A stretch of DNA of 13,290 nt. Origin: Thermodesulfobacteriota bacterium. GTDB lineage: Bacteria > Desulfobacterota_D > UBA1144 > Nemesobacterales > N074bin48. The stretch lies in NCBI GenBank assembly GCA_041572575.1, contig JBFFSH010000072.1, positions 1 through 13,290 on the forward strand, read 5' to 3'. How positions within the stretch are numbered: the stretch's first letter is position 1; each line of letters begins with the position of its first letter. Position numbers: made by a program. Below, piece after piece: positions 3,001 to 6,000 of the stretch.

Positions 3001-6000
3001 TCTAATCATAGAAGATGTTTATTGGGGTTCTTTAAAAAAAGACTTTAATTTTCTTTAGAAATTTATTATATATAGTATTATTAATTAGTTTTTATAACTA
3101 TTGACATATTAAGTGAATTACTTTATTTTTAAATTAATTATTAATTGGATTACTTAAGATGCTTTCGGCAATAATAAAGAAATATATTAAAATTGTAGAA
3201 TTTGTACTAATTGCACTCATTGCAATCGTTTTTGTGCTAATAGTTCATGACAACTTTGTAAAACCATCATTATCTACAAGCAATCTTAAAAATAATAACA
3301 CTAATAAAAATAGCACCACTCGCAGAGCACCAACAGCAAATAGCACAAGACCCAGAGCATATTATAAGCCCATTCTTGCCAGTAATATATTTGGGTTAAA
3401 GAATATTGCAGTTTCAGATAGTTTAGCACCGGGACTTACAGGTGACAGAGACGCTCCGGAAACAAAGCTCAATATGGAGTTAATTGCAACTATAATAGAT
3501 ATTAACAATTCCCAGGCAGTATTGAAAAATTTGGATAACAACAAATCAAACGGCTATTTTATTGGTGATGAGGTAGATATATATAAATCTGAAAAAATAA
3601 AGATTTCTAAGGTCGAAAACTGTAAGGTGATATTGGAGCGAAGAAGCGGCTATGAAACAATAAAATGCAAAACAGTAACAGTTGCATCAACATCAAGAAA
3701 GCCTACACGAAACACCAGGCCAGAAATATCAAAACCTGACGATGATGAAGATGAAGCTCTTGATGAGGGCATAAAGAAAATCGGTGAAAATGAGTTTGAA
3801 GTAGACCAGGAGCTGCTCGATGAACTATTAGAGGATATTAACGAAATTATGGCTGAGGTGCGTGTGATACCAAATGAAGAAGGGCTCAAGCTCTTTGGTA
3901 TGAGGCGTAATACGTTCTTTTATAAAATAGGACTTAGAAACGGTGATACATTAAATATGATAAATGATGTGGAATTAACAGATGTGACAAATGCTCTTGG
4001 AATATTCCAGGAACTTAAAGGTCAGCCCAACTTTACCATTAACCTTACAAGGCGAAAGAAGAAGCACACTTTCGAGTACGCAGTCAGATAATTTACACCA
4101 TTTAATGAAACTCCAGTAGAGTTTTGTTTATTTTATAAATATAAAAAAGTACTAGACTTAATATTAAAAGTAGTTTATGATTAAAACATAAAGTAATTTC
4201 TTAAACATTTTGGAGCAAGTTCATGAGGGAGAAGATGAATAAAGAATTAGTGGCAATCTTAATATTGCTCACAACACTTGTAGCTACCAATTTATTTGCC
4301 CAGCACTCAATTGATGAGAATAAATCCAGTAAATCCGTAAGTTATAACTACAATAAGGATATTATAACTCATACGGTTGTAAAAGGCGATAGTATGGGTG
4401 GTCTGGCTTATCGTTATAAAACAACTGTAGACTATATAAAGCAGTTAAATAATATAACAAGGGATCAGGTATTTCTGGGTGAAGTTCTGAAAGTTCCTTT
4501 TAATACTAAAAATTCCAAGGGTAAAGACGCATATATAAGCTATACAATCCAAAAAGGTGACAGCCTTTCTCAAATTGCGTCTAAATATAAAACAGACACT
4601 AAATCTATAAAAATTGTTAATAAATTAGGTAGAAATCAGATAAACGTAGGGCAGAAACTATTAATTCCTTATAACAGGAAATTTGAGAGTTCGAAGGCCT
4701 ATGATTCTAAAGAAAGCATAAAAACAGCCTCTAAAATAGATAAAAAACCTGCTGCTATTCAGGTTAAGGGTAGTAAAAAGAAAGATTATCAAAAAGAAAT
4801 CGAAGATAAATATCTATCTTTTTTAGATAAACAGGAAAGATTAAAGAAAGAGGAACAAACTAAGATAAAAACAGCTTCATCAACGAATAAGAGTGTTAAA
4901 GAAACCTCAAAAAGCAATATAAACAGTCCTAAAGATAATAAAAACTATGCCGATCTGGAAAAATCACTTAAAAATGATCTTGTAAAAAGCACAAAAAGAG
5001 AAAAAGTAAAAACAGCTAAGATTACTAAGTCTGAAAATAGAGAATCCATAAATAAAGGTGCTTATATTGACTATGTTGTAAAGAGCGGTGACAGCATTTC
5101 CATACTTGCGCAAAAACATAATACAACTGCAAAAACTATAAGAACTTTAAACAATCTGGAAAGAAACCAGATAGATATTGGACAGACTCTTAAAATTCCA
5201 AATATTCCTGCCAGCAAGTATAAAACCTATCGAATAGAAAGTGGTGATAGCCTGTCTTATTTAGCTGATCGTCACGGAATTACTACAAAGGAGCTTATGG
5301 AGATAAATGGTCTTAGTTCAAAACAGATAAATATAGGCCAAAGAATAAAGCTTCCTTTGATCGAAGCGGATGTGCAGGAAAAACCAGAAATTGCAGCTAA
5401 AGAAGTTAAAGTAGCTAAAACAGAAACAATAGACAAGAAATCAGAAAAAAATGTAGAAAAGACTGAAATTAAACCACTCAAAACTACAGGTGGTGGACCA
5501 TTTCAGATAGCTTCTAATAAAGAAGAAATAATATTGGGTGTTAATACTGCAAAAGTAAAACAGCAAACAACTGAAAAAGTAGAGAATAAAACTGATCTAT
5601 CGAATGAGAAAACAGCAAAATCAGATAAATTGCCAAATAAGACAGATAAGCTAGATAATTCTAAAAACAACGATAAGCCAGTGCTGGTAAAAGCTCAAAC
5701 CAGTAAAACTGATAAGGTTATCAAACCAGATACAAAAATAGAAAAAGAAGTAAAAAAACCGGAAACTAAGCCGGTTATTCAGGTTAAAAAAGAATCAATC
5801 AAGACAGAAAATACAATTAAAAAAGTAGAAAATGAAGAAAAACAGTCTGATATCAAACCAGTTATTGAGGCTAAAAAAGAAACAAAAAAAGATATAATAA
5901 AACCTGAAACCACAACCCAGACCAAAAAAGAAGAAGTTATCAAAGTTGCCGAATCTGACAGCAATACTAAAAAATCTTTTAAAGTCGAAAAAACTCAAAC

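Follow-up and report, generated by a model that had tools for sequence, protein, structure and literature searches.

A 17-base palindrome is the probable mark of a protein-export regulon, not described before and controlled by a repressor, across uncultured Dadabacteria

The σE envelope-stress regulon of Vibrio and the enterobacteria brings together the same cast as the regulon described here, namely a type II secretion system (T2SS), DegP and sRNAs that damp translation, the MicA/RybB-type sRNAs being members of the σE regulon. Operators that are 17-bp dyads are known from DdrO (the RDRM) and from phage CI, where they serve as sites for XRE repressors. For Vibrio, the portion of PMC6598108 that was available names two eps operons and positive control by σE. 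The CiaRH system of streptococci likewise couples one regulator to several near-identical sRNAs and has a link to HtrA; in the available portion of PMC8186281, CiaR is described as a response regulator that binds the direct repeat TTTAAG-N5-TTTAAG, drives five csRNAs, and is linked to HtrA.

The regulon that we describe in Dadabacteria is a member of neither the CiaRH nor the σE regulon. Whereas CiaR binds a direct repeat, the repeat in Dadabacteria is inverted, its AAG and CTT arms being separated by 7 bp; it lies atop the promoter, and its core targets are T2SS operons. Unlike σE-dependent promoters, those of Dadabacteria are of the σ70 type (TTGACA-17-TAnnnT) and carry dyad operators. The site resembles the DdrO/RDRM and phage CI operators in being a 17-bp dyad with a variable centre that overlaps a σ70 promoter, but both its sequence and its targets differ from theirs. 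Neither a description of the operator or the RNA nor any regulatory description for Dadabacteria was found in the literature searched, in which subscription journals were mostly not included; a Dadabacteria genomics preprint (10.1101/2020.06.22.165886) mentions the T2SS once and, in that part of its text that was available, contains no word beginning with "regulat". Dadabacteria gain a regulon, a putative operator and an sRNA-like family, with both unlinked T2SS operons and sibling RNAs predicted to be directed against Shine-Dalgarno (SD) sequences placed under one dyad, a wiring known elsewhere only via σE or two-component regulators. As read from the genomes, this regulon is real, conserved and larger than initially annotated, is of the export/envelope type, and comes with a candidate regulator.

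The window, by which we mean the whole 13,290-nucleotide stretch that was analysed (contig JBFFSH010000072.1), contains a T2SS operon on the forward strand. It comprises gspC (3159–4091; NF041515 GspC_delta, 177 bits against a cut-off of 150), gspD, encoding the secretin (4223–9079; TIGR02517, 470 bits, residues 962–1595), gspE, encoding the ATPase (9084–10760; TIGR02533, 687 bits), gspF (10802–12013; TIGR02120, 471 bits), gspG, encoding the major pseudopilin (12032–12448; TIGR01710, 109 bits), and a gene for a GspH-like minor pseudopilin (12451–12960; TIGR01708, E 7.5e-7). The NCBIfam cut-offs were exceeded by gspC, D, E, F and G, and the GspH-like pseudopilin fell under its cut-off. The gspD product has a long N-terminal extension with LysM-like repeats, a region in which matches to MltD, DipM and YneA models were obtained.

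Directly upstream of this operon, positions 3101–3161 are a predicted σ70-type promoter with two copies of one 17-bp dyad. The -35 hexamer TTGACA (3101–3106, forward strand) is separated by a 17-bp spacer from the -10 hexamer TATTTT (3124–3129, forward strand). The first putative operator (box 1, TTAAGTGAATTACTTTA, 3109–3125, no strand assigned, 17.6 bits) is a dyad within that spacer, and its final TA forms the opening two bases of the -10 hexamer. The second (box 2, TTAATTGGATTACTTAA, 3141–3157, no strand assigned) begins 32 bp after box 1, lies in the predicted leader and abuts the gspC ATG (3159), where an SD sequence would sit; the start of the gspC transcript is predicted from sequence to lie near 3135–3136. 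The layout proposed in the initial annotation, with TTGACA, a box in the spacer and a second box abutting the ATG, was thus recovered at 3101–3159. Within positions 1–5000 the gspC promoter is the top σ70 match (10 of 12 bases), although, taken together, the promoter-like sites of that region are about as numerous as chance predicts (20, with 15.9 ± 4.8 expected). As in σ70 promoters, the hexamers are 16–18 bp apart and T-12, A-11 and T-7 are conserved; TTGAC(A/T) stands upstream of box 1 at 23 of 30 gspC loci, and the T at the sixth -10 position is kept in 27 of 29 training sites. The dyad, which is constant in length, overlaps the predicted polymerase footprint, as would the operator of a repressor-controlled promoter.

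Two distinct motifs had initially been annotated in this promoter. Both boxes are present, but they are one motif rather than two: an alignment of the sites showed that the arms are constant and the centres variable, and we therefore treat both boxes as the same dyad, TWAAGT-N5-ACTTWA, 17 bp in length, with its copies exactly 32 bp apart. Among 45 distinct sites chosen by box 1 alone, 41 repeat the motif at +32, having TTAA-N8-CTTAA (with two mismatches at most) exactly 32 bp past box 1. Contigs from two of four public RNA runs span the promoter; these may be DNA.

A lone box is not enriched, occurring 27 times in this genome (37% GC) compared with 22–41 times for other spacer lengths, and the flanks of the sites are very AT-rich. 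Such a chance frequency is what one would expect if the pattern merely reflected AT-rich promoter DNA, or the shared ancestry of promoter copies, and had no protein-binding function. We find this explanation scarcely credible: the 17-bp length and the 32-bp phase are constant while centres and linkers vary freely, on genes that are unrelated and unlinked; the pattern is also seen in loci of 50–64% GC; and the controls yielded 0–1 matches. The combination of TTGAC and box is found at exactly five sites in this genome, namely those of gspC, three sRNA genes and degP, and a scan with a symmetric weight matrix, trained on the sites of relatives, returned the same five loci as twin sites above 14 bits. 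Pairs of boxes that score above 6 bits each occur four times in this genome at a spacing of 32, and zero to two times at any other spacing from 20 to 45. In the relatives, TTGAC plus box was matched 86 times, in 23 of 41 genomes, with a single match in the reversed control, which bears out the enrichment of the promoter pattern noted earlier (41 times in 16 of 31 genomes). When the -35 term was dropped, the twin pattern was matched 71 times, in 22 of the 41 Dadabacteria genomes, and not once in the control; the genomes compared are kin, and these site counts are not independent trials.

By matrix, the twin score exceeds 20 at 23 of 30 gspC loci; G002 has box 2 only, and the six loci of family f8 have neither box. 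In a DNA search, gspC coding DNA was detected in just two of 41 genomes, the relative found being the congeneric genome only. We also took the 1,455 pairs of orthologues shared by this genome and G010, a complete chromosome from another family, scored the DNA upstream of the genes, and determined that only gspL and gspC are boxed in both (16.1 and 16.4 bits for gspL, 17.6 and 11.1 bits for gspC, and 6.5 for the next pair). The boxed gene in question encodes a GspL-like protein of 497 aa (E 1e-13, under the cut-off) and is followed by a weakly GspM-like gene and then by gspN (over the cut-off); this gspLMN operon is not linked to the gspC operon. Its promoter contains TTGACT; there, box 1 is degenerate and box 2, which usually abuts the ATG, is strong. 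A box of at least 12 bits was found upstream of gspL at 20 of the 22 loci outside f8 for which upstream DNA was available, the box-negative genomes being G038 and G002 (the latter with an uncertain start), and at 0 of 7 f8 loci, compared with a background rate of 2 in 1,535 upstream windows. Since the box recurs at gspC and gspL loci across genomes, both T2SS operons are the conserved coding core of the predicted regulon. Of the shared regulon that had been proposed, the operator common to gspC and the sRNA genes stands, but the gspLMN core had been missed and degP, counted as a member on a par with the others, is peripheral. In f8, the boxes are gone at both T2SS operons and box 1 is retained at the sRNA gene.

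In each sRNA-like gene, the promoter and box 2 are followed by the core CATCCTCCATCCTCCTTTAA, then by a strong hairpin and lastly by a tail rich in U. In this genome, RNAs of 85–110 nt are predicted at C3:31413, C28:8220 and C28:9976. All of the features of an anti-SD sRNA were found in their predicted form, i.e., a promoter, an invariant C-rich core outside a strong hairpin, and a U-tailed terminator hairpin, and the 3' half of the core duplicates the genome's own 16S rRNA tail. These short genes look like candidates for RBS-blocking sRNAs. A comparison of 10 loci with the Rfam 15 covariance models gave no sRNA match, just tRNAs and two chance matches (E 0.23–0.25). A relaxed core pattern was present in 34 of 41 genomes, a count that is overstated since, of 20 matches inspected, 13 had the promoter-core-hairpin layout and seven did not. 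The boxes are absent at the sRNA gene of G010 and at a fourth core in this genome (C8:36611); f8 has one sRNA copy, and its box 1 is nearly invariant in seven of the seven loci inspected. Among the top 60 predicted sRNA targets, 25 have a signal peptide according to a rough in-house predictor, compared with a background of 15%. However, with the 16S tail as the query 20 of 60 targets had a signal peptide, and shuffled flanks gave 11–21 where the core gave 19. As the 16S tail and the shuffled flanks largely reproduce the enrichment, no target specificity beyond SD strength is apparent.

The leader of gspC differs from those of f8 in a manner that may be connected with these RNAs. A GGAG, GAGG or AGGA word is present upstream of gspC at 0 of 24 non-f8 loci and at 5 of 6 f8 loci, while gspE and gspG have ordinary SDs. 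Either the operator simply occupies the place of the SD at gspC, or gspC may be protected by its SD-less leader against co-induced anti-SD RNAs, an effect that would cover first genes only. That gspC has acquired an SD in the box-less f8 hints at a link between the operator, the leader and immunity to the sRNAs.

Judged by the distribution of its predicted sites, degP is a recurrent yet peripheral and patchy member of the regulon. The twin promoter initially annotated at degP was found again in this genome and also in G001 (one genus; proteins 73% identical); in both, the twin box appears to drive this Do-family protease gene directly, and at the directly boxed degP a 16-codon ORF follows box 2. 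The link had been thought to exist in one genome only, which is not the case: it is seen directly in G001, and through an f7 operon in G023 and G038. In f7, the box precedes an ORF that encodes an N-terminal hydrophobic segment and, in six of six aligned copies, an LRSPP end; the boxed operon continues with the genes for an unknown protein of 150–210 aa and for a small exported protein, which in G023 and G038 are followed by degP. The other degP upstream windows (270 bp) had a box in 0 of 8 cases. The degP site of G004 was left out; it lies on a 2-kb contig, the first 60 promoter bases are identical to those of G001, and binning carry-over is possible. RSPP is described as an arrest-permissive motif in the available portions of PMC12992588 and PMC10987492, the former of which also reports that it is under-represented in proteomes. 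The f7 leader resembles the RAPP/RGPP/RSPP arrest peptides (the ApdA, ApdP and SecM class) in its hydrophobic N-terminus and its LRSPP end; however, whereas the members of that class are tied to sec or yidC genes, the f7 leader precedes the unknown protein and degP.

The dyad, its 32-bp phasing, its place over the predicted promoter, and its presence at gspC, gspL and the sRNA-like genes, as well as at degP in some lineages, were shown across the genomes, and we put at roughly 0.6 the probability that the dyads bind a dimeric repressor and that gspC, gspLMN and the CCUCC sRNA-like genes are induced jointly, forming a protein-export regulon. Two repressor dimers would bind three helical turns apart on the same face of the DNA, the occupancy of box 1 blocking the -35/-10 spacer and that of box 2 blocking the start region. 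By analogy, stress in the periplasm or in export would most likely be what releases the repressor; synthesis of the T2SS would then rise, and the sRNAs and, in some lineages, DegP would be produced. The sRNA core UCCUCCUUUAA, a copy of the 3' tail of 16S rRNA, would damp the translation of mRNAs with a strong SD, a set rich in exported proteins; exported genes bearing TAAAGGAGG would be repressed by the sRNA, and the gspC leader, having no SD, would escape it.

A positive role for the dyads appears improbable to us. According to such a scheme, they would bind an activator or architectural protein that aids the weak TATTTT, which has just four of six consensus bases, or box 2 of gspC and gspL would hold the -10 of a second, leaderless promoter, in keeping with the TAnnnT in the middle of box 2 that ends 6–8 nt before the ATG in many gspC and gspL promoters, where there is no SD. 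However, relative to the TTGACA promoter box 2 falls at about +5 to +22, a position suited to blocking; the non-coding cores, too, have this box 2 in front of them; and no TTGACA stands 17 bp upstream of the inner hexamer, whose TA..T is also part of the dyad consensus.

Sites of 17 bp that are 32 bp apart recall the glnA enhancer, which is of the NtrC type, and an NtrC/PilR-type enhancer-binding protein might be imagined that represses these σ70 promoters and activates σ54 promoters such as that of pilA. Consistent with this, the best single box of this genome lies 91 bp upstream of the -24 element of the σ54 pilA promoter, and for a pilD-linked sensor kinase 39 of the 41 genomes agreed with the strict motif profile. 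We nevertheless consider such a regulator very unlikely. The arrangement of a box before a σ54 promoter was found in one of 41 genomes, being private to this one, and among the matches listed, pilA of relatives has TGACA-N5-TGTCA instead. In G003, gspC has the twin box and gspL a box, yet this genome encodes no HTH_8 protein and no σ54 activator, and because of these boxes the proposal is already contradicted, unless they are relics; G025 has four sites, and there is no PilR or PilR2-like orthologue among its eight activators.

If the dyads bind a repressor, as we favour, the best candidate is a 137-aa XRE protein (C22:25216–25629 in this genome), an assignment reached by elimination only and put forward tentatively, its chances being somewhat short of even. 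The protein, whose recognition region is nearly invariant, occurs as a single copy in 39 of the 41 genomes, and the search did not find it in G038 (94% complete, with sites) or G027. At 30 of 30 genome loci its gene opens an operon that also encodes a two-TM protein and a lipoprotein; as a lead, the two-TM protein resembles the Cache/GAPES4/SMP_2 clusters of periplasmic sensors, by features only. Each of the best 120 XRE homologues has an identity of 61% or more, and the ones that bear a lineage name belong to Dadabacteria, Thermodesulfobacteriota or Deltaproteobacteria. Solved XRE domains align only with the first 65–78 residues (best E 5e-6). A box is present upstream of the XRE gene at 2 of 30 genome loci, both in this genus, and a box of more than 10 bits at 4 of 68 distinct metagenome loci, the positives nearly all being close to this genome. 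The gene is retained in five of six f6 genomes, in which gspC and gspL were not found. Together, the 57-bp promoter and the 137-aa candidate can be tested in vitro without culturing the organism.

It is possible, if rather less probable, that the same regulon is repressed by another binder, such as a 114-aa MerR-like protein, DtxR, Rrf2 or a protein of an unrecognised family. MerR proteins bind within the -35/-10 spacer; MerR-like, DtxR, Fur and TetR proteins were present in five of five genomes tested, f8 among them; and some 20 small proteins that are shared lack a Pfam match. However, judging from sequence starts, DtxR opens a metal-ABC-type operon in G010 and Rrf2 opens a suf-type operon, and no metal or Fe-S gene is found among the conserved box targets. 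In Caulobacter, the MerR protein linked to ihfA is ZapT, which binds the terminus, according to the available portion of PMC7188993; since the MerR-like gene here is not adjacent to ihfA, that precedent does not speak against a MerR-like binder.

The list of candidates was drawn from the best matches between this genome and G010, was screened partly by eye, and included a Pfam run on 83 selected proteins, so that an unrecognised protein could be the binder. Pfam recognised the XRE, MerR-like, Rrf2, Fur, TetR and DtxR proteins, and MraZ, NrdR, PhoB and NtrC were recognised by eye or by similarity. All five of the candidates tested in f8 (XRE, MerR-like, DtxR, Fur and TetR) are retained there, as is box 1, and presence or absence in f8 therefore does not discriminate among them. 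Several regulators were rejected: (i) Fur and TetR, which have dyads of their own at their own promoters (AATTGA-N9-TCAATT and ACTGAC-N2-GTCAGT, respectively); (ii) the NarL and ArsR/HTH_20 families, which are absent from G003 and G010; (iii) ECF sigma factors, as the ECF query from this genome had no match in the boxed G010 and the hexamers are of the σ70 type; (iv) the OmpR family, with one copy alike in motif-positive and strict-negative genomes; (v) MarR, with just two sub-threshold matches in G007; (vi) the cys-divergent activator, which has its own TGTA-N9-TACA-like site in three of three genomes; and (vii) the pilD-linked kinase/regulator pair, which fitted the strict profile and failed when the matrix placed boxes in G003, G010 and G021, and in G025 without the pair. 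Among neighbouring ORF clusters, viewed by eye, no transcription factor recurs beside the sites.

With the XRE protein as the repressor, a fuller and more doubtful scheme would have the lipoprotein and the two-TM periplasmic sensor relay a signal to the co-encoded XRE repressor, whose release would co-induce both halves of the T2SS, DegP and the sRNAs that mimic the 16S tail; these sRNAs would throttle mRNAs with a strong SD, most of them for exported proteins, the gspC leader being immune. If this were true, an XRE module would do the work of σE or Cpx in genomes without an ECF sigma factor, and in some lineages DegP would sit behind an RSPP arrest-peptide export monitor.

A GTDB-wide scan for the element returned at least 121 sites in at least 118 stretches; of these sites, at least 84 lead to the sRNA core, at least 33 to an ATG within 10 nt, and at least four to other DNA. 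The carriers are filed mostly as Dadabacteria, Thermodesulfobacteriota or Deltaproteobacteria. A few are filed as Spirochaetia, Ignavibacteriales or Brocadia yet have the same sRNA or gspC, and two of these oddly filed carriers duplicate promoter sequences of the same-order genomes G028 and G005.

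The promoter region of the second T2SS operon, gspL-gspM-gspN, is of the same type as that of gspC, both in the genome under study (G000; contig position C21:15893-15953, locus L431) and among loci L406-L435, and its strong box 2, the downstream copy of the 17-bp dyad, usually adjoins the ATG directly. The gspL-gspM-gspN operon is a core member of the box regulon. In the window, the GspD secretin (4223-9079) has 1,618 aa, including an N-terminus of approximately 950 additional residues with several LysM-like repeats.

The operon encoding XRE, the 137-aa candidate regulator of the box, along with a two-TM sensor-like protein and a lipoprotein (G000 C22:25216-26821; L436), had all of its parts at 30 of 30 genome loci.

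At the sRNA promoters of family f3 (L553, L555, L556), a box lies upstream of the -35 element, 32–33 bp before the usual box-1 position, and may add a third register to the phased box array. An M23-peptidase/bactofilin pair repeatedly adjoins sRNA copies (G000 C28:8212-10100; L028, L050, L150), which in several genomes lie near parAB or yidC.

Between box 2 and degP, a 16-codon hydrophobic ORF ending in Cys is conserved in G000 and its congener G001 (G000 C3:59180-59230; L158). Elsewhere, an upstream box drives an ORF with an N-terminal hydrophobic segment and a terminal LRSPP (L104:5105-5530, L152:2557-2985, L039:5107-5502, L159:221-646, L007, L154), followed by an unknown protein and then, in two genomes, degP; its product is a candidate export-monitoring arrest peptide. 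A further candidate arrest peptide, having a signal-like segment and ending in RAPPVFS, is encoded inside a Fur-headed metal-uptake-type operon (G000 C6:10933-11283).

Tandem TGACA-N5-TGTCA sites, located 100–180 bp upstream of the sigma54 promoters of pilin genes (L167-L184, pilA upstream regions), are likely the PilR sites of Dadabacteria; most pilins of family f6 lack the sigma54 promoter. In G000 only, a perfect dyad, TTAAGTA-N3-TACTTAA (C79:553-569), lies 91 bp upstream of the pilA sigma54 promoter, reflecting either chance or recent recruitment.

A conserved TGTA-N9-TACA-like site separates a sigma54 activator from divergently oriented transporter and sulfate-assimilation-type genes (G000 C2:63415-63550; L198; L205). 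Upstream of G000 C6:14111 and C44:9260, and of their orthologues in G010, from another family, lie dyads that look autoregulatory: AATTGA-N9-TCAATT for the Fur-family gene and ACTGAC-N2-GTCAGT for the TetR gene. In another Dadabacteria genome, G002, the sole sigma54 activator, an NtrC orthologue, is split into three pieces (L214, G002 C1:1781200-1782600), and the dehydrogenase gene upstream of it into two (L214).
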